Below are positions 1,717 to 63,085 of a stretch of 64,000 nucleotides of DNA, one piece after another. The translations under genes were made by a program, and so were the position numbers. This stretch comes from a virus (taxonomy: Duplodnaviria; Heunggongvirae; Uroviricota; Caudoviricetes), in IMG/VR virus record IMGVR_UViG_3300050120_000279. The stretch is one strand, 5' to 3'. The notes beneath the pieces are model-generated. The model saw nothing but the letters and a program-made list of their open reading frames with translations. It did no database searches and was not told where the DNA came from. How positions within the stretch are numbered: the first letter of the stretch is position 1; each line of letters opens with the position of its first letter.

Positions 1717-1804
1717 CGCCCGGTGGTGGAATTTGGCAGACACACCAGCTTGAGGTGCTGGCGCCCGTAAGGGCATGAGAGTTCGAGTCTCTTCTGGGCG
1801 ACCA
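1717..1804 (+). tRNA. tRNA-Leu (anticodon GAG), type II with long variable arm
   Basis: 7-bp acceptor stem CGCCCGG/CTGGGCG (one GU), anticodon stem CCAGC/GCTGG with loop TTGAGGT, variable arm GCCC-GTAA-GGGC, T-arm GAGAG-TTCGAGT-CTCTT, discriminator A and encoded CCA. Confidence 0.7.
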
Positions 1805-2687: not shown

Positions 2688-2764
2688 GCCTCTATAGCTC
2701 AGTGGACTAGAGCACGGAGCTTCTACCTCCGGTGTCGGGAGTTCGAATCTCTCTAGGGGCACCA
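2688..2764 (+). tRNA. tRNA-Arg (anticodon TCT)
   Basis: Acceptor GCCTCTA/TAGGGGC, D-arm TAGCTCAGTGGACTAGAGCA, anticodon stem CGGAG/CTCCG with loop CTTCTAC, T-loop GTTCGAATC, CCA encoded; starts immediately after the stop of the upstream gene. Confidence 0.8.
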
Positions 2765-4050: not shown

Positions 4051-4127
4051 GCGCGATTAGTTCAGTGGTTAGAACGGGAGACTCTAAATCTCTGTCGTCG
4101 GGGGTTCGAATCCCTCATCGCGCACCA
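4051..4127 (+). tRNA. suppressor tRNA, anticodon CTA (reads UAG amber)
   Basis: Acceptor GCGCGAT/ATCGCGC, D-arm GTTC-AGTGGTTA-GAAC, anticodon stem GGAGA/TCTCT with loop CTCTAAA (U33, CUA, A37), T-arm GGGGG-TTCGAAT-CCCTC, discriminator A, CCA encoded. Confidence 0.6.
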
Positions 4128-5169: not shown

Positions 5170-5663
5170 TGCAAGTACTCTACTGTAGTGACGGCAGAGA
5201 AGTTCTAGTGGATGATGAAGACTATCCATTGTTGAAGCGGCATACTTGGACATCTGTTCCAGGACGCAATACCTGGTATGCGCTGACGACATTAGGGGCG
5301 AAGACAGTGATGATGCATTCCCTGATCAGTCCAATGCCGTCTCCGTTTCATACAGATCACTGGGACGGCAATGGTCTAAACAACCAGAAGCTAAACCTTC
5401 GCCGAGCGACCATCTCTGAGAATGCAATGAACAGGGGACCAGAAGCTGGCAAGTTGTACAAAGGAACTCATGCCTATAAAGGCAAGTTCCGCGCAAAGAT
5501 TCAATACGAAGGTAAGCAGGTCAATCTCGGTACATTTGTCACCGAGGAGGAAGCTGCAAAGAGGTACGACGAAGCTGCGCTGGAATTCCACGGCAAGTTT
5601 GCTTATCTCAATTTCCCTTTGTGTTTACCAGTCTCGGGAGCCTCGGCTCCTCAACACACGTAA
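5169..5663 (+). mobile_element. HNH homing endonuclease with C-terminal AP2 DNA-binding domain
   Basis: HTDHWDGNGLNNQKLNLR (HNH_3-type) followed by the AP2-like YKGKFRAKIQYEGKQVNLGTFVTEEEAAKRYDEAALEFHGKFAYLNF. Confidence 0.7.
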
Positions 5664-5689
5664 GAGAAACAGACTATTTGTTCTGTACA

Positions 5690-5723
5690 CAAGACCTCGG
5701 TTCGATTCCGAGCGGGTCCACCA
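5690..5723 (+). other. tRNA-like 3' fragment (T-arm CTCGG-TTCGATT-CCGAG, acceptor 3' strand CGGGTCC, A, CCA) with no matching 5' half
   Basis: Canonical GGTTCGATTCC T-loop and encoded CCA; no complementary 5' acceptor strand within 120 nt upstream. Confidence 0.3.
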
Positions 5724-5814
5724 TAGAGCCTACCGGCTGCACGTTTGTCGGGATGGACAACATCTTCGGATGTCCCGAATTCATTCTGCCGACACAGTGT
5801 CCGGGTGTGAGTGA

Positions 5815-6033
5815 TTGCATTCGGTAAGTTCTATTGTGGGCCCGTCATGGTTTCGATTGGGTATTGGGTGGATAGCTGACGTGTCGGATCGGAAGCCCAC
5901 GTTACGGGAAGCCAAGACTACAACTGCCAAAAGCAATGTTGTTGCCGGTATCAAAGCCAAGGTGCTGTCTTTCGGCGCGCGCGTAAGCGCTGCGACCGCG
6001 ATGCCCACCATGGGTTTTGCCGCTGCTGCCTAA
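5815..6033 (+). CDS. hypothetical small protein (hydrophobic segment, Ala-rich C-terminus)
   Basis: 72 aa ORF in a 450-bp gap; followed by hairpin GCCCCG-n7-CGGGGC at about 6080..6098. Confidence 0.25.
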   Translation: MHSVSSIVGPSWFRLGIGWIADVSDRKPTLREAKTTTAKSNVVAGIKAKVLSFGARVSAATAMPTMGFAAAA

Positions 6034-6116
6034 GAAACAGCAACAGAGTTAGAGCCACTCTGTCCCTCAGAGCTCTCAAGCCCCGTGTAAAGCGGGGCAC
6101 TTCTATTGGAGGCAGC

Positions 6117-6395
6117 ATGACAGATCAGCTGTATATAGTTCTGCATACTCATCGATTTGGCAGCAGCACCTATGTTGTCAAGAGCGATCGTATGCCAACG
6201 GAACTTCAAGTAATCCGTTGTTTGGAACTCGACTATGAAGGGACTCGGGATGAGTCTATTGCCATCAATCTCTTGGAATCAAATGAGCCAGCGATTCTGG
6301 ATTACATTCCTGGATTAGATGATGCTGACTTCCGTTCCGAGGTGGACTACAACGGGACGGCTCTTCGTGATCATGAGGACGACGTCGATGGCTAA
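6117..6395 (+). CDS. hypothetical protein
   Basis: 92 aa ORF, GGAGG RBS. Confidence 0.4.
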   Translation: MTDQLYIVLHTHRFGSSTYVVKSDRMPTELQVIRCLELDYEGTRDESIAINLLESNEPAILDYIPGLDDADFRSEVDYNGTALRDHEDDVDG

Positions 6396-12287: not shown

Positions 12288-12713
12288 ATGAAACGACACA
12301 CCTGTTTTGCCCTGCTGTTCTTGTCTCTCTCAGGGTTTGCCGCCATCCCCTCTCAAGGGGTTGTTGGTATGGCCACTTGGTATGGAAAACAACACCATGG
12401 GAGAAAGACCAGCAGTGGTCGCCGATTCAACGAACATGAGCTCACTGCCGCGTCTCCTACGTTGCCCTTCGGAACCCGCGTTCACGTCACCTTCCTGAAG
12501 ACTGGAAGGTCCGTTGACGTCGAGATTACCGATCGAGGTCCCTTCGGTAAGCACCGAATCCTCGATCTTTCTGAGGAAGCAGCGGATGAGATCGGACTCA
12601 AGCCCTACGGCGTAGGACGGATCAAATTAGAGGTCATCAATGAGCGCCAGCTTTCAGCAAATCACTCTTACCCTCGTCGTGAAGGAAGAGGACGTCGAAG
12701 CAGTGAAACGTGA
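12288..12713 (+). CDS. secreted RlpA-like double-psi beta-barrel protein with signal peptide
   Basis: N-terminal signal peptide; ATWYG..GRKTSSGRRFNEHELTAASPTLPFGTRVHVT..GRSVDVEITDRGP matches the RlpA/DPBB motif. Confidence 0.65.
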   Translation: MKRHTCFALLFLSLSGFAAIPSQGVVGMATWYGKQHHGRKTSSGRRFNEHELTAASPTLPFGTRVHVTFLKTGRSVDVEITDRGPFGKHRILDLSEEAADEIGLKPYGVGRIKLEVINERQLSANHSYPRREGRGRRSSET

Positions 12714-12834
12714 ACTGAACCAGTCCCTCGATTGTATCGGGGAAGAGTATCAGGTCCACAACGACAAGATCGAGGAAGAGGACTGCGATAGCCCTGAGTC
12801 CGAAGATCTGTACGAGTTCGAAGACGCGGCGTAA
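12640..12834 (+). CDS. small acidic protein
   Basis: 64 aa, Glu/Asp-rich C-terminal half; starts inside the 3' end of the RlpA-like gene. Confidence 0.3.
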   Translation: MSASFQQITLTLVVKEEDVEAVKRELNQSLDCIGEEYQVHNDKIEEEDCDSPESEDLYEFEDAA

Positions 12835-12886: not shown

Positions 12887-13375
12887 ATGGCATCAGTCGC
12901 AAGCATCACCCTGTTGGGCAACCTCGGAAAAGACCCAGTCCTCACCAAGGGTTCCGATGTATCGAAGTCATACTGCGATCTGTCGATTGCAGTTGAGATC
13001 TATGACGGCAAAGACGCCGCCGGCAAAGGCCAGTACAAGACCAACTGGTGGAACCCGCGTGTCTTCGGCCAGCAGGCGGAGTACATTGCCGGTGCAGCCA
13101 AGAAGGGCAACGCTGTTCTCGTGCTCGGCGATCTCGTCATCAATGAGAAGGACGGCAAGCAGTACAACAACGTCCGCGCCACCACTGTCCGCCTCGCTAC
13201 TCGCAACGAGAAGGGTTCTGGGGATCAAGCACAGCCCCAGGGCGAACAGACTCAGCAGACCAGCTCGGCGCCTGTGGCGCAGCAGGCAAGCGCTCCTGCC
13301 ACGGCCGCAGCTCTCCCGCCGGCTACTGTCCATGCCACCACGATGGAAGCAGTCGACGAAGACCTGCCGTTCTAA
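12887..13375 (+). CDS. ssb: single-stranded DNA-binding protein (SSB)
   Basis: OB-fold N-terminus (ITLLGNLGKDP), Gln/Pro-rich linker and acidic C-terminal tail ...DEDLPF. Confidence 0.8.
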   Translation: MASVASITLLGNLGKDPVLTKGSDVSKSYCDLSIAVEIYDGKDAAGKGQYKTNWWNPRVFGQQAEYIAGAAKKGNAVLVLGDLVINEKDGKQYNNVRATTVRLATRNEKGSGDQAQPQGEQTQQTSSAPVAQQASAPATAAALPPATVHATTMEAVDEDLPF

Positions 13376-22010: not shown

Positions 22011-23065
22011 CGACCAGAAGAAACCTGAGTGTTGAACTGCGGCCTCAGCGCCTATCCGAGTTGGTTGGCCAGGAGGGTGTCGTTGCCAGTCTTCGACGCA
22101 ATTTCGGTGCCGGCAGCGTGCCCATTGGTATCCTGCTGACCGGCTCCTTTGGTCAGGGTAAAACGACGATCGCTCGAATTCTGGGTATGGCTTTCAACTG
22201 CACTCACCAGGTCCAGTTTGGTGAGACCTGTGTCGATTGTCTCGACAATGCAGACATGTTCAACATCTTTGAGCTGAACTGTGCGGACTTGACGACCATC
22301 GACCAGATGAAAGAGTTCCTGCCCAAACTCTTACCGTACCCGAACTTTGGTAAGTATCGGATCATCATCCTCGATGAAGCACAGCAGATGTCGGACAAGG
22401 CTCAGCAGATCTTGCTGACCCCGCTCGAGGAGCTGGACTCCCATAACATCTTTATCTTCTGCACATCGAACCCGGCAAAGATCAATCAGGCTGTGAAGGA
22501 CAGGTGTAAGCCGTTCGCTATTCCTGATCTGAAACCGGCCGGCGTGACTGCTCTGGTCAACAGGACCGTGGAGCTGGCTGTCTCCCGCTATGGAATGCCT
22601 TCCATCCCGATGGATCCTCTCATCGAGATGCTGCATACCGCTCAGGTGTTCAGCTCGCGCAATGTAGTCATGGCTGTCGAGATGTTCCTTGAAGGGTCGA
22701 CGGCGGCCCAGGCGATCGTCATCAAGGACGCGGGCGAGGTAGACTACTTCTCCCTCAATGCCGCTGTAGGGCAGGGTAAGTGGGAACCAGCTCGTAAGAT
22801 TCTCCAGATGGCCAAGCCGGCGGATGGTGCCCAGGTGAAGATGCGTCTCTCAGCATTCTTCCGGTACAAGTTGCTGGAAACCCCTGCTGGGAGCCGGGCC
22901 GATCTTCTGTCACTCTTTATAAGGGAGTTGGGAGATGCGGCCGCTGTCGAGTCTGGTCTTGAATTATCCCTTGTCGTCAGTGCGGTCTACCGGATCTGCC
23001 AGACGATCGAGAACGTGAAGAGCAAGACTTCCACTAACAATCCAGTGTTGATCAAGGCGGCGTAA
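22007..23065 (+). CDS. clamp loader AAA+ ATPase subunit (DnaX/RFC-like)
   Basis: Walker A GILLTGSFGQGKTT, Walker B IIILDEAQQMS, sensor region; located just downstream of the clamp gene. Confidence 0.65.
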   Translation: MTTRRNLSVELRPQRLSELVGQEGVVASLRRNFGAGSVPIGILLTGSFGQGKTTIARILGMAFNCTHQVQFGETCVDCLDNADMFNIFELNCADLTTIDQMKEFLPKLLPYPNFGKYRIIILDEAQQMSDKAQQILLTPLEELDSHNIFIFCTSNPAKINQAVKDRCKPFAIPDLKPAGVTALVNRTVELAVSRYGMPSIPMDPLIEMLHTAQVFSSRNVVMAVEMFLEGSTAAQAIVIKDAGEVDYFSLNAAVGQGKWEPARKILQMAKPADGAQVKMRLSAFFRYKLLETPAGSRADLLSLFIRELGDAAAVESGLELSLVVSAVYRICQTIENVKSKTSTNNPVLIKAA

Positions 23066-23991
23066 TGAAAGTACTTACAGACGAGCAGCTGACTCTCATG
23101 CAACAGCACGCAGACCAGCCGATTCCGCCGTTTGCGCCCCATCCTGATCGGCACTACCGGGCGGTGGACACCTACCTGGAGAGCTGGCCGAATGATCTTC
23201 GGTCACTCTCGGTAGCTCAGATCGATATCCCACTGACCCTGGAGGAGTGCACGATCCTGGGTTCGCAGATCGCGGACTTCGGACAGTCGTTTGCACCCGA
23301 ACCCCTACCAGCACATGATCTGATTGCGAAGGTGCAAACAGCTTCCGAGAAGATGCCTGGTCCGTTCTTCGTCCGCCTGGGTTCACGAAGCCCCAAGGAT
23401 GCCCTTTACTGGTTCAAGGACGAGATGAAGGTCGACAATGGAGAGGAAGCTCTCCAACTGCTGACCGCTAGCTCCGAACGTGTCTGGGAAGATCTCCGGA
23501 TCGGCCTGCACTTCGGGTATGCCTCGCACATCTTCCTTCGCCAGTGGACGGAGATGCCTGAATGGTCCGAGTTCCGGTGCTTCATGAAGGGCCGGAAGCT
23601 CATTGCTGTCTCGCAGTACTACTATCGCCAGGCGCACCGTGAACTGATCGAGGACTACGACGGCATCAAGTGGGCCATCGAACAGTTCTTCACCCGTCAG
23701 TTCAAGCATCTTTCACATCTGGATGACGTGGTCTTTGATGTCTTCGTCAAGCAGAAGACCAATGCCGGCACGTTCAATAGCGGTGTCTGTGGCGTGCCTC
23801 CTTGGCGGGCCTGGGAGATCAAGCTCCTCGAGATCAACCCATACTGGAACCTGTGCGATCCTTGCCTCTTCAACTGGAGTGAGCTGGATGCACTAGCCGA
23901 AGGCGGAACTGAATACCAGTTCCGTTTCATCGAGCAGACTGAGCAGTTGATAGGCCACAAGTATTCGGTCGTCAAAGCTGACCAGCTCTAA
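23065..23991 (+). CDS. Cdc123/D123-like ATP-grasp family protein (candidate)
   Basis: FFVRLGSRSPKDA and SEFRCFMKGRKLIAVSQYYY match the two hallmark motifs of the Cdc123 ATP-grasp clade. Confidence 0.5.
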   Translation: MKVLTDEQLTLMQQHADQPIPPFAPHPDRHYRAVDTYLESWPNDLRSLSVAQIDIPLTLEECTILGSQIADFGQSFAPEPLPAHDLIAKVQTASEKMPGPFFVRLGSRSPKDALYWFKDEMKVDNGEEALQLLTASSERVWEDLRIGLHFGYASHIFLRQWTEMPEWSEFRCFMKGRKLIAVSQYYYRQAHRELIEDYDGIKWAIEQFFTRQFKHLSHLDDVVFDVFVKQKTNAGTFNSGVCGVPPWRAWEIKLLEINPYWNLCDPCLFNWSELDALAEGGTEYQFRFIEQTEQLIGHKYSVVKADQL

Positions 23992-24054: not shown

Positions 24055-26505
24055 GTGCAGAAGAAGTCAAGTAGCAAAGCTGTCGACGAGCCAGTGTCGT
24101 CACAGATGCAGATCAAGAAGCGCAATGGTTCTTTGGAGCCTGTCGACCTGAACAAGATTGTCCGTGCAATCGGACGTTGCTGTAATGGTTTACCCAATGT
24201 CGATCCGATTCGTGTGGCCTCAAAGACCATCAGCGGTATCTTCAATGGCGCAACCACCCAGCAGCTGGATGAACTGTCCATTCAGACGGCCGCGGCGCTT
24301 ATCTCAGAGGAGCCAGAGTACTCAAAGCTGGCAGCGAACCTCATGGCGGAGTACATCCGTAAGGAAGTAGCCAACCAGGAGATCCATTCGTTCTCCCATG
24401 CCATGACCGTGGGCCATGAGCAGGGGCTGATCAATGATCGTCTTCTGGAGTTCGTCAAGATCAATGCACGCAAGCTGAACAACGCGATCAAGGAAGAGCA
24501 CAGCGAGCTGTTCGAGTACTTCGGTATCCGGACTGTTTACGACCGCTATCTTCTTCGTCATCCTGTGAGCCGTAAGGTGATCGAGACACCTCAGTACTTT
24601 ATGATGCGTGTCGCTGCTGCCTTGGCTATGACCGTGGCCGATGCTCTTGAGACCTACCGTCTCATCAGCAACATGAACTACATCCCGTCGACCCCGACGT
24701 TGTTCAATGCGGGCACGACTCACGAGCAGATGTCCAGCTGCTACCTAATGGCTCCTCCCGAGGACTCCATCGAGGGCATCTACGAGATCTATGGTGAGAT
24801 CGCATTCAACTCCAAGTTCGCTGGTGGTATCGGCAGTCCCTGGGGTACGATTCGGTCGGCTGACTCGCTCATCAAAGGCACCAACGGCAAGTCCAATGGC
24901 ATTCTCCCCTGGCTCAAGACACTGGACTCGTCCGTGGCTGCAGTCAATCAGGGCGGACGCCGTAAGGGAGCCGCCGCGGTCTACCTACCAACTTGGCATG
25001 CTGACATCGAGGATTTCCTTGAGCTGCGCAACAATACCCTCGACGCGAACAAAGCGACACGCAATCTGAACCTGGCCCACTGGGTCCCGGATCTGTTCAT
25101 GGACGCGGTTGATCAGGACCGCGACTGGTATTTGTTCGATCCCAAGGATGTACCTGACTTCAACGAGAGCTTCGGTATCGATTTCGACAACGCCTATTCA
25201 GACGCTGTCACTGCCGGCAAGTTCAAGAAGAAGGTCAAGGCTCGTGACCTGTATGCCAAGATGATGCTTACCCTCGCAGAAACCGGCAACGGTTGGATGT
25301 GCTGGTCTGATCGGTCAAACGTCAAGTCGAACCAGACGGGTATGGGAGATGTCATTCATTCCTCGAACCTCTGCACAGAGATCCTCGAGGTGACCAAGCG
25401 CAAGGATTCAGACACCGAGACGGCTGTCTGCAACCTGGCTTCCGTGGTTCTTCCGTCGTACTGGGACCGTATCAAGGGCTCGTTCGATTACAAGACCATG
25501 GTGAAGGATATCAAACAGATCGTCCGTCAGCTGGATCGCGTGATCGACCTGAACTTCTACCCGATCGTATCGGCTGAGGTCTCGAACAAGAAGTGGCGTC
25601 CCATTGGTTTGGGTGTCATGGGCCTACAGGATGTGTTCTTCCTCGCCGGCCTGCCGTTCGATAGTCCTGAGGCCGTATCGCTCTCGACGAAGATCCAGGA
25701 AGAGATCTACTACGCGGCAATGTCTGCGTCATGTGATCTCGCGGAGAAAGAGGGTTCGTTTCCCAACTTCTCCAAGACCCGAACAGCTCTGGGCAAGTTG
25801 CAGTTCGATCTCTGGGACGTAGTTCCGGCAGACAAAGCACGCTGGGATGCTCTCAAGGATCGTATTGCCTCAACAGGCCTGCGAAACTCGTTGGTCATCG
25901 CCATCGCGCCGACGGCTACCATCGGATCTATCATCGGAGTCTACGAGTGCATCGAGCCGCAGGTTTCGAACCTGTTCAAGCGCGAGACACTGTCGGGCGA
26001 GTTCATCCAACTCAACCGGTACCTGGTAGCCGACCTCAAGAAGATCAATCTCTGGAACGAGGACATCCGTTCCAAGATCAAAATCGCTGATGGGTCGATT
26101 GCAGGCATCGAGGAGATCCCGGTGAACCTCCGACTGCTTTACCGCACGGTCTGGGAGCTGTCACAGAAAGACCTGATCGACATGGCGGCCGCCCGCGGCC
26201 CTTATATCGACCAGAGTCAGTCTCTGAATCTGTTCATCGAGAATCCTACGGTGGGCAAGCTGTCCTCGATGTACATGTATGCCTGGAAGAAGGGCTTGAA
26301 GACGACGTACTACCTGCGCTCGCGCGGTGCTTCGTCGATCGCCAAGACCACGGTAACCTCTGCTCCTACGACCAGTGCGTTTCCTCCAGCCATGCGTGAA
26401 GTGAAGACAGACCCGGCGCTGCAGCATCTTCTGGATGCAGCAGCGATGGGCGCGGCAATAGCGTGTTCTCTTGAGAACCCTGAATCGTGTGAGGCTTGTC
26501 AGTAA
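24055..26505 (+). CDS. nrdA: ribonucleotide reductase class Ia large subunit NrdA with N-terminal ATP-cone
   Basis: ATP-cone (QIKKRNGSLEPVDLNKIVRAI), catalytic NLCTEI, C-terminal redox Cys pair; GTG start with AAGGAA RBS (alternative ATG at 24106). Confidence 0.9.
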   Translation: MQKKSSSKAVDEPVSSQMQIKKRNGSLEPVDLNKIVRAIGRCCNGLPNVDPIRVASKTISGIFNGATTQQLDELSIQTAAALISEEPEYSKLAANLMAEYIRKEVANQEIHSFSHAMTVGHEQGLINDRLLEFVKINARKLNNAIKEEHSELFEYFGIRTVYDRYLLRHPVSRKVIETPQYFMMRVAAALAMTVADALETYRLISNMNYIPSTPTLFNAGTTHEQMSSCYLMAPPEDSIEGIYEIYGEIAFNSKFAGGIGSPWGTIRSADSLIKGTNGKSNGILPWLKTLDSSVAAVNQGGRRKGAAAVYLPTWHADIEDFLELRNNTLDANKATRNLNLAHWVPDLFMDAVDQDRDWYLFDPKDVPDFNESFGIDFDNAYSDAVTAGKFKKKVKARDLYAKMMLTLAETGNGWMCWSDRSNVKSNQTGMGDVIHSSNLCTEILEVTKRKDSDTETAVCNLASVVLPSYWDRIKGSFDYKTMVKDIKQIVRQLDRVIDLNFYPIVSAEVSNKKWRPIGLGVMGLQDVFFLAGLPFDSPEAVSLSTKIQEEIYYAAMSASCDLAEKEGSFPNFSKTRTALGKLQFDLWDVVPADKARWDALKDRIASTGLRNSLVIAIAPTATIGSIIGVYECIEPQVSNLFKRETLSGEFIQLNRYLVADLKKINLWNEDIRSKIKIADGSIAGIEEIPVNLRLLYRTVWELSQKDLIDMAAARGPYIDQSQSLNLFIENPTVGKLSSMYMYAWKKGLKTTYYLRSRGASSIAKTTVTSAPTTSAFPPAMREVKTDPALQHLLDAAAMGAAIACSLENPESCEACQ

Positions 26506-26757
26506 ATGGTCACTTATCACGTAGTTGTGAGCGATGACATGGACATTGTCTTTGTAGGTAATGTTGATGCCTCCAATGACAGCGGCCACGGCCGCCACCG
26601 GCTAAAGGCGGACATCGAGAAGATGTTCCTTGACTTCGGACCTACCTATCGCGTGGAGATCACTCTCGCGGCAGTAGCCTCCCGGCCAGAAGTACTCCTC
26701 CACGAACTCAAGACTGTTCTCACAGGGCTTGAAGGCAACGCAACCAAGGAGCTGTAA
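26506..26757 (+). CDS. hypothetical protein
   Basis: 83 aa ORF, TAAATG overlap with nrdA. Confidence 0.35.
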   Translation: MVTYHVVVSDDMDIVFVGNVDASNDSGHGRHRLKADIEKMFLDFGPTYRVEITLAAVASRPEVLLHELKTVLTGLEGNATKEL

Positions 26758-26891
26758 ATGTGCGCTGAAGATTACGAAGATGAAGACTTCGACGACGAAG
26801 AGGACGATGACGAAGATGATGACGACCTCGATGACGACTTCGATGATGAGGACGAGGACGATTGCGACGAAGACGATGAGGATGACTGTTG
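26758..26891 (+). CDS. 44-aa polyacidic micro-protein (about 90 percent Asp/Glu)
   Basis: ATG directly after the upstream TAA; MCAEDYEDEDFDDEEDDDEDDDDLDDDFDDEDEDDCDEDDEDDC; stop overlaps the next ATG (ATGA-type coupling). Confidence 0.35.
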
Positions 26892-27203
26892 ATCGTCATT
26901 CACTCTGACATGGAGTCTCCTGGCTCAACGGAATCTGCGCAGGCTGCGCGGGTGTTCAGGGCCGGGAGAGCTTTCTCCCATTTGTGTGCCGATACCGAAG
27001 ACGAACTTCGTGCCTATGCCAAAGCGATCGGTCTCAACATGAGATGGATCCAGAACCCTGGAAATCCACAGCGCGTTCACTTCGATGTGACCGGCGCCTG
27101 GCTTACCAGAATCCGCAACGACGACCGTGTAGTCAACATGACCATGCGTGAGTGGGTCGATTGGTATTCCGCACGGAATAAGCGATACGAGGTACTTGGA
27201 TGA
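26889..27203 (+). CDS. hypothetical protein (possibly DUF4031-like, VHFDVT motif)
   Basis: 104 aa ORF. Confidence 0.35.
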   Translation: MIVIHSDMESPGSTESAQAARVFRAGRAFSHLCADTEDELRAYAKAIGLNMRWIQNPGNPQRVHFDVTGAWLTRIRNDDRVVNMTMREWVDWYSARNKRYEVLG

Positions 27204-27349
27204 GGACTAATTCGTATCCTGGTTGGCGCACGATGACCTCTGTCCAACGACGTAACGCCAAGATGGACCGTATCTGGGAAGCCGCGAAGGATGCTCAGAC
27301 AAGGTTCAATGCATCGAGTCGTGAACCCGCTACAACCAAGTAACAAAGG

Positions 27350-28375
27350 ATGCTACACATGAGCAATACCAAAGATGATCTTCTGTCCCCCGGCTTCGAT
27401 CTCAATCTTCGACCTATGAAATACCCAGACTTCTATGAGATGGTGGGCCTGGCAGAGAAGAACACCTGGACTGTTGAAGAGGTGGACTTTTCCACCGATC
27501 TCGTCGATCTCCGAACTAAGGTGACGACCGCTGAGAAGCATATGATCCAGCGCCTGGTCGCGTTCTTTGCCACCGGGGATTCCATCGTCTCGAACAACCT
27601 GGTGTTGAATCTTTACACCCACCTGAACTCTCCGGAAGCTCGCCTGTATCTTTCACGCCAGCTCTGGGAGGAAGCCCTGCACGTCAAGTTCTATCTGACA
27701 TTGCTGGATAACTACATCCCGGAACCTTCGGAACGCAACGCAGCCTTCGCCGCGGTGGATAACATCCCATCGATCCAGAAGAAGGCTGAGTTCGCCACCA
27801 AGTGGATCGATTCGATCAACGATCTGCACCGTATCGAGTCCACTGAGGACAAGAAGCGCTTCCTTCTGTGTCTCATCTGCTTTGCTGCATGTATCGAAGG
27901 CATGTTCTTCTTCGCTGCGTTCGCCTATGTGTACTTCCTCCGCTCGAAGGGTCTGCTTCATGGCCTTGCGACTGGGACCAACTGGGTTTTCAGGGACGAA
28001 TCGGCTCACATGGCGTTTGCCTTTGCTGCGATCGACGTGATCCGGGTTCAGTCTCCGGAACTGTTCGACGAGGATCTCAACAACCGGATTATCGAGCTCA
28101 TCGAAGATGCGATTGATACCGAGGTTCAGTTCGCCGAAGATCTTCTGTCGGGTGGAGTCGTCGGGCTCAGCGCCAAGGACATGCGTCAGTACTTGGAGTA
28201 TGTTGCTGACCAGCGCTTCGCGCGCTTGGGCATCAACTACAGCTACGGGTCGACCAATCCCTTTCCGTTCATGGAACTCCAAGACGTGCAGGAGCTGACG
28301 AACTTCTTCGAGCGACGTGTCTCTGCATACCAGGCCAATGTCACGGGAACCGTCGGTTTCGACGAGACCTTTTAG
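27350..28375 (+). CDS. nrdB: ribonucleotide reductase class Ia small subunit NrdB
   Basis: Di-iron/tyrosyl radical motifs (EEALHVKFY, FAACIEGMFFFAAFAYVYFL, NWVFRDESAHMAF); alternative start at 27359 with better RBS spacing. Confidence 0.9.
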   Translation: MLHMSNTKDDLLSPGFDLNLRPMKYPDFYEMVGLAEKNTWTVEEVDFSTDLVDLRTKVTTAEKHMIQRLVAFFATGDSIVSNNLVLNLYTHLNSPEARLYLSRQLWEEALHVKFYLTLLDNYIPEPSERNAAFAAVDNIPSIQKKAEFATKWIDSINDLHRIESTEDKKRFLLCLICFAACIEGMFFFAAFAYVYFLRSKGLLHGLATGTNWVFRDESAHMAFAFAAIDVIRVQSPELFDEDLNNRIIELIEDAIDTEVQFAEDLLSGGVVGLSAKDMRQYLEYVADQRFARLGINYSYGSTNPFPFMELQDVQELTNFFERRVSAYQANVTGTVGFDETF

Positions 28376-29848: not shown

Positions 29849-30598
29849 ATGCACAGCGGATTCTTCATCACGATCGAGGGCATCGACGGAATAGGCAAGT
29901 CTACCCAGATCAAACTCCTCGTGGATGCCATCAAGTCGGCAGGCCAGGCGGTATATCTAACCAAGGAACCTGGTGACAAGTTCACTGGCTCCATCATTGG
30001 CGCACCTATCCGGCATATGCTGTTCACCGATCCCGGTACGCAAGCTTTGGGTCCTGGCATTGGAGATCTACTTTTCCTCGCCGATCACATGCAGAATGTC
30101 TACGAAATCAAGAAGTATCTGGAGACCGGAGTTACGGTCATCTCAGATCGCTATGCTGATTCCCAGTTCGCCTATGCGGCCAGTCCTACTAAGAAGGCTC
30201 CTGCCTGGGCCAACAAGCTATTCGCAGAGCACTACGGGGTGATTCCCGACCTTACCCTCCTGATGGTCGCTCGTGGACCGAGTGCGCTATCTGATCCGTT
30301 TGCAGCAGAGGATATCGGATGGGCTTTACAGCGTGCTAATGCGCGCCGCGGCGTCGAAGCCGGTAAGCAAGACGGCAAAGCGTGGAATGATATCGAGGCC
30401 CAGCGAACCATTCAGAATGCGTATCTAACAGGACTGACTGGCAAAGCTCGCACTGCGATCATCAACATCTGGGATAGCAGCTCTGCCGAGACCGTCCATG
30501 AATTGATCATGGCTGCTATTCTCCTGGCACAGTCCCGTCACGGCGAAGGCAAGCAGCCCAACCTTCCACTTGTGGAATTGGTAGCCGAAGCGGCATAG
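29849..30598 (+). CDS. tmk: thymidylate kinase
   Basis: FITIEGIDGIGKSTQ P-loop, DRY motif (ISDRYADS), lid region. Confidence 0.8.
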   Translation: MHSGFFITIEGIDGIGKSTQIKLLVDAIKSAGQAVYLTKEPGDKFTGSIIGAPIRHMLFTDPGTQALGPGIGDLLFLADHMQNVYEIKKYLETGVTVISDRYADSQFAYAASPTKKAPAWANKLFAEHYGVIPDLTLLMVARGPSALSDPFAAEDIGWALQRANARRGVEAGKQDGKAWNDIEAQRTIQNAYLTGLTGKARTAIINIWDSSSAETVHELIMAAILLAQSRHGEGKQPNLPLVELVAEAA

Positions 30599-31941
30599 TG
30601 GCTCGTAGAGGACAGGTCTTCGAGCCGGTAGCGACCGCGCTCGAAGATCACGTACCGGTGAACTATAAAGTGATCGGTACCGCGGACTGGTTTGCCTCAC
30701 GGTTTGAACCAGATGCGGTTGATGAAGCCGACAAGATCGTTATCAGCAATGGTAGCGACCTGGCTCCCCACAAAGAATGGATCAGCCGGCAGAAGGCCAT
30801 CGGTGCGGATACCGAGACCACCGGCAGGATCGTCAAGGGCAACAAAGGCTACTCGATGAACCCCGTAAATGAAGGGACTCGACTAGTGCTGCTGCAACTC
30901 GGCACTGAAGAACGCACTTACCTGATTGATCCTGATCTCGTGGAGGAGTTCCGTGAACCTTTGGAGTCCACCAAGATCCTGAAGATCCTACAGAACGCTC
31001 TGTATGACTTCAAGTGGTTGATGACCAAGAAGAACGTCCACATGACTAGGATCTACGACACCATGCTGGCTGAGCAGGTACGCACTGCCGGCTTGATGGG
31101 TGTCAAGGTAGGCCTGGCGGATATGGCTCGCAAGTATGACCCCTATTACCTGATCTCGAAGGCCGTTCGCGGTCTCTTCGTAGAGCTGAATGAGGGGAAG
31201 ATGAGCCGGCCAATGGTGTACTACGCGGCTCGCGATATCCCGTTGATGTTCCCCATATTTCGGGCACAGCTCAAGGATCTGAAGGCCAATGGCCTGGAGA
31301 GCACCGCGCAGCTGGAGTTCGACTGCATCCCCTGTACGGCTGAGATGGAACTGGGCGGGGTCTTCTTGAAGACTGCACCTTTGGACCTGCTCATTCAGTA
31401 TTGGCAGGACAAGCAGGAGGCTATGGGCAATCAGATCCTCGCCATGTACAGCGAGGAGTTGAAGAACAGAGGTATCGGCAGTTCCTCTTTGATTCCCGAC
31501 CTCGATGAAGCATTTGACCTTGGCTCTGCCGCACAGAAACTCGTAGCCCTCCGAGCACTGGGCTTCGAGCTCGATGATACGAAGCGCGAAACCTTGATGG
31601 AACTCGATCACCCCATAGCGAAACTGCTTGGTGAGTATTCGAACGTCACCAAGATGACGTCTACGTACGGCGACAACATGCGACAGAAGATCAACGAGTT
31701 CACAGGCATGTGGCACCCACGATTCGCGCAGATGGGCTCCGGTGAGATGGAAGCTGCTTCTGGACGCGACAACACGACTACGACGGCGACCGGCCGTTAC
31801 GTTTCAGACGCACAGCAGTTCCCGCGCAAGACGGAGCGGTATGCCAATGAGAAGGACCAGGTCCTCCTGGGCCTTGTGGCAGATCACTTCAAAGCGCAGA
31901 TCGCTGATGTCGAGAAACGGGATAAGGACATAGCAGCATGA
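30598..31941 (+). CDS. family A DNA polymerase, N-terminal part (3'-5' exonuclease plus thumb region)
   Basis: Exo I GADTETTG, Exo III YAARDIPLMFPIF; ends before polymerase motif A. Confidence 0.8.
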   Translation: MARRGQVFEPVATALEDHVPVNYKVIGTADWFASRFEPDAVDEADKIVISNGSDLAPHKEWISRQKAIGADTETTGRIVKGNKGYSMNPVNEGTRLVLLQLGTEERTYLIDPDLVEEFREPLESTKILKILQNALYDFKWLMTKKNVHMTRIYDTMLAEQVRTAGLMGVKVGLADMARKYDPYYLISKAVRGLFVELNEGKMSRPMVYYAARDIPLMFPIFRAQLKDLKANGLESTAQLEFDCIPCTAEMELGGVFLKTAPLDLLIQYWQDKQEAMGNQILAMYSEELKNRGIGSSSLIPDLDEAFDLGSAAQKLVALRALGFELDDTKRETLMELDHPIAKLLGEYSNVTKMTSTYGDNMRQKINEFTGMWHPRFAQMGSGEMEAASGRDNTTTTATGRYVSDAQQFPRKTERYANEKDQVLLGLVADHFKAQIADVEKRDKDIAA

Positions 31942-32372
31942 GCAAGCAAGTTCAGCACGAAACAGTGAAGTTCAAGCTGTCTGATGTAGACGATGAGGAA
32001 CTCCGGACCAAACTCGAGCACAAGTTTCTCGTGTACGAGAACCTCAAGCGCGAGCAGGTCAAGGCAATCCGTGAGGCGCAGCGTGCTGCAGCCCGTGGAA
32101 CTATGGCATTGGCCGAGGTTCAGTTGTCGGAATCGGAGCTTCTGATCGAGGCTTCTGAAGCCTTCGATTTGATCTCTACCGAGCCGGCCTGGATCATCCG
32201 TCGTTCTCCCAATGGCGCGGTCATCTTCGAATGCATGCTCACTCAGACGGACATCCAGAACGTCCAGCGAGGGCAGATCAAGCAGATGAAGGAACAGATC
32301 AAGCCCACGGTGGATGACGACGACGATGAAGACGACTCTGCCTCGGATGAAGGTATGTTTCGCAAGGAATAA
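31938..32372 (+). CDS. hypothetical protein inserted between the two polymerase genes (acidic C-terminus)
   Basis: 144 aa ORF, ATGA overlap with upstream gene; ends DDDDDEDDSASDEGMFRKE. Confidence 0.4.
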   Translation: MSKQVQHETVKFKLSDVDDEELRTKLEHKFLVYENLKREQVKAIREAQRAAARGTMALAEVQLSESELLIEASEAFDLISTEPAWIIRRSPNGAVIFECMLTQTDIQNVQRGQIKQMKEQIKPTVDDDDDEDDSASDEGMFRKE

Positions 32373-32375
32373 CAC

Positions 32376-33329
32376 ATGGACGTTGGAGATCTCGTAAAGC
32401 TTGATGTACGAGACGGCGTCGATATCATGGGCTCCTTCCTCGGGATCTTCCAGGACCGTGAATGGTACTGGAGTCTCGAGGACAAGGTAACACTCTGGCG
32501 GGTACCGGACATTAGAGAGTGCATTGCGGCCCAGCCGGGCCACAAGGTTCTCTCTGCCGACTACAGTCAGATCGAAGTAAAGCTGATGGCGCACCTGTCC
32601 AGGGATCCAGTCCTGATAGCGGCCATCAATTCGAAGAAGGATATCCATTGCTTTACTGCGACGGAAGTCTTCGGGAAGAAGCTGAACTTCACCTACGAAG
32701 ACATCTTCAATGCGACCCAGCATAAGGACGCAAAGAAGCATCCTCGGCACAAGGAACTCAAGCGACTTCGCTCGAACATCAAGGTAGTGACGTTCGGTGT
32801 CCCCTATGGCGCCGGTGCTAAACGCGTCGCCGCAATGACAGGAATGACGGACGTCGAAGCTCAGGCGTTCATCGATGAATACTTCCTGAAGTTCCAAGTA
32901 TTGAAGGCCTGGCTCGAAGCCCAGGGTAATTTGGCTCTCAAAGAAGGATACACAGCGACACCGAACGGCCGCCGCCGTTTCTACACGCTGCCTCCCAAGG
33001 GAGACCCAGATTACGACGGTCAGTTGGCGCAGATCAGGCGCTGGGCAGGTAACCACCCGATCCAGGCAGCTAATGCCGACATGCTCAAGCTCGCGATTCG
33101 CAAGATTTATCTAGCGATCCGTGGGGGAATAGCGACCGGCCCTAAGCTGTACGACGCAAGGTTGTCTCTGGTCGTGCATGACGAAATCGTAATGATCTGT
33201 GCGGATAAGGATGTTGATGCCGTATCCAAGATCATCGACCGGGCAATGACGGAAGCGTACGACGAGATCATTCCAGATATCTGGAACACGATCGTAGTTG
33301 TGGCTGACGACATCTGGGAGAAGGTCTAG
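32376..33329 (+). CDS. family A DNA polymerase, C-terminal part (palm/fingers with motifs A, B, C)
   Basis: Motif A LSADYSQIEVKLMAHLS, motif B RLRSNIKVVTFGVPYGAGAKRV, motif C LVVHDEIVMIC. Confidence 0.8.
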   Translation: MDVGDLVKLDVRDGVDIMGSFLGIFQDREWYWSLEDKVTLWRVPDIRECIAAQPGHKVLSADYSQIEVKLMAHLSRDPVLIAAINSKKDIHCFTATEVFGKKLNFTYEDIFNATQHKDAKKHPRHKELKRLRSNIKVVTFGVPYGAGAKRVAAMTGMTDVEAQAFIDEYFLKFQVLKAWLEAQGNLALKEGYTATPNGRRRFYTLPPKGDPDYDGQLAQIRRWAGNHPIQAANADMLKLAIRKIYLAIRGGIATGPKLYDARLSLVVHDEIVMICADKDVDAVSKIIDRAMTEAYDEIIPDIWNTIVVVADDIWEKV

Positions 33330-33345
33330 CACACGAAGGAACTCT

Positions 33346-33594
33346 ATGAACCGCGCCGATCTGGTGGATGCAGTTGCCAAAACCGGACTCACCATTCGGG
33401 AGGCGCGGGGTGTAGTGAGTGTTGTCTTTGGCTCGATACAGGGTGCTCTCGAAGATGGAGAAACGGTAAAGCTACCGTTTGGAACCTTCGAAGTCGTCGA
33501 GCAGTCCCGCCGTCCGAAACGAGGCTGGCTGCTGGGTCGAGTCCGAGTGACATACAAGCAGCGGAAGTACATCAGATTCACCTTTGGAGAATAG
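33346..33594 (+). CDS. HU/IHF-family DNA-binding protein
   Basis: MNRADLVDAVAKTGLTIREARGVVSVVFGSI...GETVKLPFGTFEV follows the HU fold signature. Confidence 0.6.
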   Translation: MNRADLVDAVAKTGLTIREARGVVSVVFGSIQGALEDGETVKLPFGTFEVVEQSRRPKRGWLLGRVRVTYKQRKYIRFTFGE

Positions 33595-57055: not shown

Positions 57056-57700
57056 ATGTATGCAATTCTGGCCGACGACGAACTGATGCTCCGTGAACTA
57101 CTCTCTGCTTCTCTAACGCATGCCTTCAAATTCGACATGCTCACGACCAATAATGCCGGCGACGCTGTCGAGCTGACCCGTAAGTACAATCCCGTTCTCG
57201 TGATCATGGACATGATGATGTCAGGCATGGGAACCTTCGATGCGATCGCCGAGATTCGACGCATGGCGCCGTACACCAAGGTCATGATTCTGAGTGGCCG
57301 AGCAGATGTTGACCTGTTGATTCGATCCCGGGCAGTCAAAGCGCACGGGTACTGCCTGAAGGGGGATCTGCCCGACGAGATCCACTACGCTGTCAAGACG
57401 GTGATGCGCGGTGGCATCTATATGCCGCCCTCGCTCTCCACCCACCTCCTCGATCCAGCCAGGGAAGGGCGCTCCGCTATTGACGCGCTCACTCCGAAAG
57501 AGCGATCGGCGCTAGGGCTTCTGGCCCAGGGCAAGACGATGAAGGAAGTGGCCTTCGTCATGCGGATCTCGGTCAAGACGGCTGAAACTCACCGAAACAA
57601 TCTGGGCCGCAAGCTCAATCACCCCACCAAGGCGCAGCTCATCTCGTTCGCAATCCAACACAAGCTGATCAGCCATTCCGATCTGGCAATCAGCGCCTGA
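57056..57700 (+). CDS. response regulator, REC domain plus LuxR/NarL-type HTH
   Basis: Receiver residues DD (LADDE), D (VIMDMM), S (ILSG), K (CLKGD); C-terminal LTPKERSALGLLAQGKTMKEVAFVMRISVKTAETHRNNLGRKL. Confidence 0.8.
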   Translation: MYAILADDELMLRELLSASLTHAFKFDMLTTNNAGDAVELTRKYNPVLVIMDMMMSGMGTFDAIAEIRRMAPYTKVMILSGRADVDLLIRSRAVKAHGYCLKGDLPDEIHYAVKTVMRGGIYMPPSLSTHLLDPAREGRSAIDALTPKERSALGLLAQGKTMKEVAFVMRISVKTAETHRNNLGRKLNHPTKAQLISFAIQHKLISHSDLAISA

Positions 57701-62455: not shown

Positions 62456-63085
62456 ATGGCCTATTTAGCTAGCACTCAACGTATTGTCGTGGCCGCAGCG
62501 GCACTCTTCGCAAAGAAGGGTTTCCGCGATACCGCGACGCGCGAGATCGCCAAGTATGCTGGAGTTAATCAGACGACCATCTTCCGACAGTTCAAAGGAA
62601 AGCACGAATTGAGTCTGGCAGCTATCGACCACCTGGCGACGGAAGCAAACTTTCACGCCCGGCTGGAGAAGGCGATCAATCAGTGCCGGCCAGAGAGTCC
62701 GGCTTCGGCTATGGCCATTGTCGAATTCTTCATAGATATTTATCAGAAGAACAACGACTTCGTAATGATCGTATGGAACGCCATCGTCGAGCGACAAGAT
62801 CCCTCTGCTGACAAAGATCTTCGTGGAGACGTTCGAATGAAGTACACGATCCCACTTCGACAGTTTCTTCAGAAGTTCTGTCAATCCAGTACAGATGCCG
62901 GTTACCTTGTGGGTGATCCTGACCTGAATTCAGAAGTACTTTACGGTCTCGTCATTTATATGCTGCAGAACAATCTTGTTCGACAATACAATTCCGATGG
63001 ACCAACGAGAATGGGCCAGGGAATAAAGACCCTGGCCCAGCAGATTGTGTATCAGTGGTTGAATGGTTGTGGAGTTCGGTCTTAG
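62456..63085 (+). CDS. TetR-family transcriptional regulator
   Basis: N-terminal HTH AAALFAKKGFRDTATREIAKYAGVNQTTIFRQFKGKHEL. Confidence 0.8.
   Translation: MAYLASTQRIVVAAAALFAKKGFRDTATREIAKYAGVNQTTIFRQFKGKHELSLAAIDHLATEANFHARLEKAINQCRPESPASAMAIVEFFIDIYQKNNDFVMIVWNAIVERQDPSADKDLRGDVRMKYTIPLRQFLQKFCQSSTDAGYLVGDPDLNSEVLYGLVIYMLQNNLVRQYNSDGPTRMGQGIKTLAQQIVYQWLNGCGVRS

Follow-up and report, generated by a model that had tools for sequence, protein, structure and literature searches.

Within a 64,000-nucleotide stretch of tailed-phage DNA (IMG/VR record IMGVR_UViG_3300050120_000279; the whole stretch is referred to here as the window), a 44-codon open reading frame (ORF) whose product is four-fifths aspartate and glutamate lies between nrdA and nrdB, the genes for the large and small subunits of ribonucleotide reductase (RNR). 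The gene order is nrdA / 83-aa ORFan / acidic ORF / DUF4031 / 47-aa ORF / nrdB (aa, amino acids), and the locus comprises the following features.

24055..26505, + strand: nrdA, class I RNR large subunit with an ATP-cone, at the head of a run of coupled cistrons.
26506..26757, + strand: 83-aa ORFan directly upstream of the acidic ORF, without family and with a low-confidence structural model.
26746..26751, + strand: Shine-Dalgarno sequence AAGGAG, 6 nucleotides (nt) before the ATG of the acidic ORF and within the terminal K-E-L codons of the 83-aa gene.
26755..26760, + strand: TAAATG junction, in which the TAA of the 83-aa ORF is immediately followed by the ATG of the acidic ORF; both ORFs share one reading frame.
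26758..26892 (stop included), + strand: acidic micro-gene, ATG, 44 codons and TGA; called as a gene in Logan contig L081.
26878..26882, + strand: GAGGA, in the final codons of the acidic ORF and 6 nt ahead of the TTG of the DUF4031 gene.
26889..26892, + strand: TTGA overlap, the TTG start of the DUF4031 gene overlapping the TGA of the acidic ORF; JGI and Logan both call a 104-aa product there.
26889..27203, + strand: DUF4031 gene, 104 aa, directly downstream of the acidic ORF in the window.
27350..28375, + strand: nrdB, RNR small subunit, which closes the nrdA-nrdB interval of small genes.

The acidic ORF exactly occupies what would be a 131-nt gap between two plus-strand genes. A first-pass annotation of this DNA had described an ATG-initiated, 44-aa ORF at 26758 that is coupled to its upstream neighbour through TAAATG, and both statements hold; the junction between nrdA and the 83-aa ORF likewise reads TAAATG. 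Downstream, the annotation had seen an ATGA overlap. The window reads TTGA there, with TTG as the start codon of the DUF4031 gene, in place of the ATG found in the relatives described below, and GAGGA is probably the ribosome-binding site of this downstream gene. The location between nrdA and nrdB is likewise correct, although the ORF is directly adjacent to neither.

The predicted product, MCAEDYEDEDFDDEEDDDEDDDDLDDDFDDEDEDDCDEDDEDDC (also written MCAEDYEDEDFDDEEDDDEDDDDLDDDFDDEDEDDC DEDDEDDC), contains 25 Asp and 10 Glu, so that 35 of its 44 residues (79.5%) are acidic, somewhat fewer than the roughly 90% first estimated. It has no Lys, Arg, His or Pro. The longest uninterrupted run of Asp or Glu (D/E) spans 12 residues and all four D/E codons are used. 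The non-acidic landmarks are Cys at positions 2, 36 and 44 (three, where two had been counted), Tyr6, Phe11, Leu24 and Phe28. This is the sole stretch in the six frames of the 64-kb window to reach at least 60% D/E over 20 residues; an ORF at 12640..12834 that had been named as a second acidic example is merely 31% D/E and not comparable. In 80 viral loci with a related nrdA, only segments within proteins of 418 aa or more attain the 60% level. A collection of 15 billion proteins contains the 83-, 104- and 47-aa neighbours from the 85,452-bp JGI contig but not the exact 44-aa product; the micro-ORF was apparently passed over in the JGI annotation, whereas the Logan gene calls include it.

Because the peptide itself is unusable in homology searches, we used the neighbouring genes as search anchors. 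These led to two Logan contigs from one sample (SRR29078296), L084 via the DUF4031 protein cluster and L085 via the nrdA cluster, which together represent the relative used for comparison. L085 carries nrdA, a homolog of the 83-aa gene, TAAATG and then MCGADYEDDEDDDLEDD to the contig end; its DNA at the ORF start reads ..AAGGAGCTGTAAATG TGC GGT GCT GAC TAC.., and its Shine-Dalgarno stretch AAGGAGCTGTAAATGTGCG is identical to that of the window. L084 starts in the acidic reading frame (..DFDDDDDFDDEEDDDCDDDDEDDC-stop) and continues with a 62-aa gene (TAATG overlap), DUF4031 and nrdB. The end of L085 (position 2980) and the start of L084 (position 1) both fall inside the acidic tract and are frame-compatible, which gives the relative an ORF of at least 41-42 codons; the breaks may stem from low-complexity assembly or from D/E-tract length heterogeneity in the population. 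Window and relative share the TAAATG start, the N-terminus MC..DYED and the C-terminus F..C..EDDC-stop. Contig L081, from another sample, is 100% identical to the window, and a third lineage, a 931-bp JGI contig known here from its proteins (P0002, P0010), carries both a homolog of the 83-aa ORF and the 62-aa gene. The nrdA genes in IMG/VR most similar to the window's share 61% identity; their loci are non-syntenic, and an acidic micro-ORF occurs in none of them. Degenerate DNA patterns for the conserved N- and C-termini returned no match in viral or genome contigs, and L082, among the matches listed from a metagenome scan, was rejected as a chance match in a bacterial 2-oxoglutarate dehydrogenase contig. 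By megablast, blastn and tblastn, no close phage relative was found in GenBank/INPHARED; the phage lineage is previously undescribed.

The comparison between window and relative carries the evidence that the ORF is a gene. In the flanking genes, synonymous divergence (dS) is 0.55-0.93 and nonsynonymous divergence (dN) 0.035-0.10, with a divergence of 0.397 at four-fold sites (607 sites). Over 41 alignable codons of the acidic ORF, the differences at codon positions 1, 2 and 3 number 4, 6 and 17. Pooled, the proportion of differing synonymous sites (pS) is ~0.73 (11/15 sites) against ~0.15 for nonsynonymous sites (pN; 16/108 sites), and the nonsynonymous changes are mostly Asp/Glu exchanges. 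Cys2, Tyr6, the Phe 17 residues from the end and the Cys at -9 and -1 are all conserved in the relative, the last Cys codon with a synonymous TGT/TGC change. The ORF also keeps its own stop despite a different next gene, which is DUF4031 in the window and the 62-aa gene in the relative. Conservation in related phages, which the first-pass annotation had proposed as a check, was thus found for the ORF, its start context, its Cys, Tyr and Phe landmarks and its stop, at a flanking dS of 0.55-0.93.

Low-complexity DNA of this kind could instead be a non-functional spacer, a decayed GAY/GAR triplet repeat, or the complement of an antisense poly-Ser gene. By its nature a GAN repeat leaves five of the six frames open, and the alternative frames were therefore checked. 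Tandem Repeats Finder reports weak periods of 6, 9 and 15 (63-75% matches) in the tract; the apparent lack of a JGI call and the breaks of both relative contigs within the tract also fit such a view. To set against this, we evolved the window sequence under an empirical four-fold substitution matrix in 200,000 neutral runs. The number of acidic codons among the 41 fell to a mean of 8.4, with a maximum of 21; the relative has 31, a value reached in 0/200,000 runs, and neutral drift is rejected at the observed acidic content. Only 1.8% of runs kept all three Cys. As a repeat the tract is far from pure, with all four D/E codons in use, so slippage homogenisation cannot explain its maintenance, and the start, stop, Cys and aromatic positions are conserved. 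An antisense poly-Ser (TCN) ORF would likewise render third-position changes silent, and neither D/E nor antisense Ser codon usage separates the readings. In the relative, however, TAG directly precedes the Ser run and no start is present, the extent of the frame is not conserved, and the neighbouring genes are all on the plus strand; the antisense ORF was rejected. In the +2 frame (ANG codons) the variable base would be the second codon position, making the observed changes all nonsynonymous and radical, and this frame was rejected as well. A conserved ribosome-binding site, ATG and stop accompany the D/E frame alone. The spacer, repeat and antisense explanations are therefore largely refuted and, in our judgement, very improbable.

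A reading of the locus as an RNA element was also rejected. The segment 26730..26920 folds with less structure than shuffled controls (z +1.62), the acidic-ORF region has zero Rfam family matches, and neither a promoter-like site nor a convincing terminator was found near it. The ORF has the features expected of protein-coding genes in general, namely a ribosome-binding site, a conserved open frame and third-position bias. From this sequence comparison, we consider it very likely that the acidic ORF is a protein-coding gene under purifying selection. Its retention in a diverged relative supports the first-pass proposal of a genuine coupled micro-gene as opposed to a low-complexity spacer.

What the product does can be addressed from its composition and predicted structure. 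No homolog of the peptide was found by Pfam, PHROG, phmmer (5.8 billion proteins) or tblastn (50,697 phage records), searches whose sensitivity is limited by low-complexity filters; composition correction probably suppresses the phmmer query. Nor did the peptide match Pfam, PHROG or PADLOC-era families, and it is not assigned to any family. AlphaFold2 (single sequence) predicts no secondary structure, with a mean pLDDT of 56.7 and a pTM of 0.12. A chain that is 80% D/E would be incompatible with a hydrophobic core, so the peptide presumably cannot fold alone.

By analogy with acidic proteins that bind nucleic-acid-binding partners, we tentatively favour a role in trans, in which the peptide acts as a disordered polyanion that binds a basic partner; we place this possibility somewhat below an even chance. 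The acidic ORF would be co-transcribed with nrdA, and its translation would be coupled to the upstream cistron via AAGGAG and then TAAATG. The resulting 44-residue, 35-carboxylate peptide would imitate the charge of single-stranded nucleic acid and cover the basic surface with which some phage or host protein binds nucleic acid; nucleoid proteins, polymerases and defence nucleases are examples of such targets. Its few aromatic and Cys residues would give specificity. We infer the accumulation of the peptide, its action in trans and its binding partner alike. The ideas of a DNA-mimic anti-restriction protein, a nucleoid-protein decoy or a binder of basic partners, raised in the first-pass annotation, are plausible on the same analogy.

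Several points weigh against this interpretation of the gene and its product. The embedded ribosome-binding site of the next gene could account for part of the 3′ nucleotide conservation; around GAGGA, the stretch GATGAGGATGACTG is nucleotide-identical in the relative. The known lineages number just two or three, and the middle of the relative's ORF is missing since both contigs break in the tract. No known mimic or family is homologous to the peptide, and it is predicted to be unfolded, whereas classical DNA mimics fold. Finally, N-terminal D/E runs in E. coli abort translation prematurely through intrinsic ribosome destabilisation (IRD) (bioRxiv 10.1101/2021.02.02.429294; PMC11162784), so full-length peptide may be made inefficiently.

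This last point leads to the main rival, a cis-acting translational valve, which was absent from the considerations of the first-pass annotation. On this view the ORF would work by being translated and not through its product. The nascent chain, nearly all D/E beyond residue 3, would destabilise the 70S ribosome, as in the mgtL leader; some of the ribosomes arriving from nrdA and the 83-aa gene would abort before the downstream start, and the aborting fraction, tunable and dependent on Mg2+ and ABCF factors, would set or regulate the expression of the following genes up to nrdB. The IRD criterion is a start rich in D/E(/P), with at least 3 of the 6 residues after Met (PMC11162784). In the window, 3 of these 6 residues are acidic (CAEDYE), as are 6 of 7 at positions 4-10, and a run of 12 D/E is present; such poly-acidic runs are absent from the E. 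coli proteome (PMC11162784), which counts in favour of a valve. IRD, which peaks at N-termini and strengthens when Mg2+ is low, serves mgtL for sensing. The ORF is coupled on both sides, with a weak TTG overlapping its stop as the start of the window's next gene, and the window carries a tmRNA gene, which suggests that the phage invests in translation quality control. Against these observations, the conserved Cys2, Tyr6, Phe and two C-terminal Cys would be superfluous for pure charge-driven stalling. The downstream gene has its own GAGGA ribosome-binding site, and the ORF is retained though the next gene differs between the genomes. There is no RNA switch structure or alternative RNA structure, Rfam match or convincing terminator at the locus, and in the relative only 2 of the 6 residues after Met are acidic (CGADYE, followed by 5 of 6 in DYEDDE). 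On balance we regard the valve as unlikely.

Two further readings of the peptide, both as a mimic of a protein tail, were rejected. Mimicry of the NrdB C-terminal tail can be set aside as the peptide ends in Cys and NrdB in ..GFDETF, with no real similarity between them. Mimicry of the SSB tip fails similarly: the peptide ends in ..EDDC and is encoded by a separate cistron, whereas the SSB ends in ..DEDLPF. The peptide does not have the acidic stretch with an aromatic or hydrophobic end (..D-D-D-I-P-F, ..D-F), joined to a DNA-binding domain, that marks the C-terminal tails of SSB, T7 gp2.5 and gp4. The window's SSB gene is at 12887..13375 (+ strand) and its product ends in ..MEAVDEDLPF, a canonical acidic tip. 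The phage thus uses the standard SSB-tail interaction code, which the micro-peptide does not copy.

The upstream neighbour raises a separate alternative, in which the tract is a read-through acidic tail of the 83-aa protein (giving a 128-aa product) or one half of a non-covalent pair of products. The two ORFs lie in one frame, separated by TAA only, with an identical junction in the relative, and the 83-aa ORFan co-occurs with the acidic ORF in every lineage found. In the collection of 5.8 billion proteins, the 83-aa protein has a single other cluster, P0002 (86% identical, on the 931-bp JGI contig), and its final 30 residues are invariant between P0001 and P0002. However, the TAA is conserved, and TAA is the most efficient stop codon; the window's only suppressor-type tRNA reads TAG, not TAA. 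A profile search with the 83-aa protein against 1.84 billion representatives recovered its own cluster only and no fused versions, leaving it an ORFan, and it has no relative in IMG/VR. The acidic ORF, moreover, has its own strong Shine-Dalgarno sequence and ATG. Taken together, a read-through tail or paired product strikes us as very improbable. AlphaFold2 models the 83-aa protein as beta-beta-alpha-beta-alpha at low confidence (pLDDT 65); no solved fold matches the model, the best Foldseek hit being the designed protein Top7 (E 0.52).

Three tRNA genes were located by ARAGORN on the plus strand at 4051..4127, 2688..2764 and 1717..1804. These are, respectively, a tRNA with anticodon CTA (amber-suppressor type, labelled 'Pyl' by ARAGORN), tRNA-Arg(TCT) and tRNA-Leu(GAG), the first two of which Rfam confirms. 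The CTA tRNA suggests that TAG read-through or recoding is possible in this phage, and has no bearing on the TAA that precedes the acidic ORF. At 5656..6033 (+ strand; Rfam RF04321, 76.1 bits, E 8e-13) is a tmRNA gene of the permuted, two-piece type, placed by ARAGORN at 5631..6124 with the tag peptide AATAMPTMGFAAAA. Phage-borne tmRNAs are uncommon. The permuted form hints at an alphaproteobacterial or cyanobacterial host.

The position of the ORF within the reductase operon brings in another explanation, a metal-binding RNR accessory whose thiols and carboxylates would bind Fe2+, Mn2+ or some other divalent cation, buffering the metal or supplying it as the NrdB cofactor is assembled. The ORF lies within the nrdA-nrdB interval in both genomes, its three Cys are all conserved, the last with the synonymous TGT/TGC change described above, and NrdB carries, as read from its sequence, the E-x-x-H...Y motif of the metal/tyrosyl-radical subunit. 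Opposing this, the peptide shows no similarity to NrdI, NrdH/glutaredoxin, YfaE ferredoxin or metallochaperones, neither the 44-aa nor the 83-aa ORF has a Pfam match, and three Cys alone do not make a standard site. Across the peptide and its small neighbours, DUF4031 is the sole match to Pfam and PHROGs. The interval itself is also variable, as mapped below.

L084 77..265 and 576, and window 27200..27343: nrdA-nrdB variable spot, with a 62-aa gene gained and a 47-aa ORF lost in the relative.

In the relative, the micro-ORF is followed by the extra 62-aa gene, itself acidic, and the basic 47-aa ORF of the window is missing, which puts nrdB straight after DUF4031 (TAATG). Gain and loss of this sort is a pattern typical of accessory small genes. 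As the interval is plastic, position argues weakly for an RNR role and the case for a peptide that serves the reductase is weakened; we find a metal-binding accessory decidedly improbable.

More widely, the window constitutes a large phage's module for replication and nucleotide metabolism. Nearly all genes between about 6.3 and 58 kb are on the plus strand, where they stand close together and overlap by 1 or 4 nt. Encoded in the window are a DNA ligase, a CCA/poly(A) polymerase-like enzyme, NADAR and SLOG proteins, the SSB, a RecD2-like helicase, a Rad52-like protein, a sliding clamp, a clamp loader, a D123-like protein, NrdAB, a MazG-like protein, thymidylate kinase, a split family-A DNA polymerase, an HU-like protein, a radical-SAM protein, a RecA-like protein and a primase. 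The D123/CDC123-family gene (23065..23991, + strand; PF07065, E 3e-30) stands between the clamp loader and nrdA; D123/CDC123 is a mostly eukaryotic ATP-grasp family. The family-A polymerase is encoded in two ORFs, the first with the 3′-5′ exonuclease and the start of the polymerase domain and the second with the rest of that domain; the locus (30598..31941, 31938..32372 and 32376..33329, + strand) includes a 144-aa ORF without Pfam match in between. Right after the polymerase, at 33298..33594 (+ strand), is the gene for the HU-like protein to which the first-pass annotation had alluded (PF00216, E 8.4e-12), and its product is a candidate basic partner for the acidic peptide. Gene orientation turns mixed near the 3′ end of the window, where genes for bacterial-type regulators (a LuxR-family response regulator at 57056..57700 and a TetR-family protein at 62456..63085, both + strand) may be auxiliary genes or markers of the module edge.

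Acidic micro-genes also occur elsewhere. Scanning IMG/VR for runs of 12 or more GAN codons gave at least 120 loci; among the matches listed, the median ORF with such a run is 265 aa long, and a few are small stand-alone ORFs. The clearest of these listed small ORFs is the following.

L168 4698..4835, + strand: acidic ORF MDELNEDLFDEDFEVDGIDWEDDDIDWDEIDEFDEDDEEDEDDDE, 45 aa, 69% D/E, on an IMG/VR 3300-series contig.

This ORF, on an unrelated viral contig and with spaced Phe, Trp and Ile, is preceded at 8 nt by GGAG and overlaps the following gene through ATGA; it lies in an early or replication-type module near WhiB-like and SpoVS-like genes. It resembles the window's ORF in its size, its Shine-Dalgarno and overlapping-stop coupling, and its aromatic residues spaced in a D/E background. 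It differs in having no Cys and in being richer in Trp and Ile. With no alignable similarity between the two, an independent origin is likely and they would be analogues. Additional small acidic ORFs are present in L200, L163 and L097. Among the matches listed, the window's ORF is the most extreme acidic micro-gene, and it comes with direct evidence of purifying selection. Proteins with D/E stretches are found in the replication modules of the Microbacterium phages Ilzat (gp35) and Eleri (gp34) (PMC5897797); Ilzat gp35, at 281 aa, was rejected as an analogue. Judged from these sequences, acidic micro-genes appear to recur in phages without a described function.

Should the peptide be produced and active, it would represent a minimal electrostatic decoy, with 44 residues, no fold, 35 negative charges and a few conserved Cys and aromatic anchors, and it would offer a very simple way to study how basic host or defence proteins that bind DNA or RNA are neutralised by phages. 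The ORF is also a natural extreme test case for ribosomal abortion on N-terminal poly-acidic chains, since either the host translates poly-acidic sequences efficiently or the phage exploits abortion for regulation in its RNR operon. A bolder proposal, to which we give little credence, is that stand-alone, near-pure D/E peptides of ~45 aa form a recurrent, unrecognised class of phage genes. The member described here would then have a double role, as a ribosome valve between nrdA and nrdB that is sensitive to Mg2+ and hence to the nucleotide pool and, through its completed chains, as a disordered nucleic-acid mimic of minimal size. Most annotation would on this proposal miss the class through its length cut-offs and low-complexity filters. 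Were the double role true, a virus would for the first time be seen to use intrinsic ribosome destabilisation, and no smaller DNA/RNA-mimic effector would be known. In practice, the case shows that conserved genes below the usual cut-off of 50-60 aa in 'low-complexity' DNA get lost from phage annotations.

Chadani et al. 2017 reportedly dealt with IRD-type regulatory peptides such as E. coli MgtL. Like MgtL, the acidic ORF is very short, D/E-rich right after its start and upstream of other cistrons (bioRxiv 10.1101/2021.02.02.429294; PMC11162784). MgtL, however, has 17 aa, is interrupted by proline (EPDP) and works with an RNA switch in a 5′ leader, whereas the acidic ORF has 44 aa, is intra-operonic and lacks Pro. 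It also has no detectable RNA structure and, unlike MgtL, has conserved non-acidic residues.

D/E repeats act as nucleic-acid mimics (PMC10250230; Wang et al. 2014 on D/E repeats, as cited in PMC5897797). Prothymosin-alpha and the eukaryotic D/E repeats of DNA/RNA-binding proteins share with the peptide an extreme Asp/Glu content and disorder, and bind basic nucleic-acid-binding surfaces by charge. They are eukaryotic and mostly parts of larger proteins, with no evolutionary link to the peptide.

Among phage and plasmid DNA mimics, T7 Ocr, ArdA, T4 Arn, phi29 p56 and SPO1 Gp46, which inhibits HU (PMC8892312), are small, acidic and early or accessory, as the peptide is, and decoy DNA-binding proteins. 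The peptide has the high net negative charge on a small protein that characterises such mimics (35 D/E and no Lys, Arg or His in 44 residues). The known mimics are 20-35% acidic and have defined folds that place carboxylates like DNA phosphates, whereas the peptide is predicted to be unstructured, with no stable fold of DNA-phosphate geometry in the AlphaFold2 model and no similarity to a described mimic family. A disordered counterpart is found in Gp44 of the Bacillus phage SPO1, whose acidic domain (residues 56-122) binds the beta/beta′ subunits of RNA polymerase and has been described as a flexible single-stranded-DNA mimic (PMC8208478). Gp44 as a whole has 237 aa and three domains, one of them the acidic region, and also carries a DNA-binding anchor, whereas the peptide stands alone at 44 aa, is far more acidic (80%) and has conserved Cys, with no sequence similarity found between the two. 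Both are nonetheless phage-encoded, strongly negative and, by prediction or simulation, random coils.

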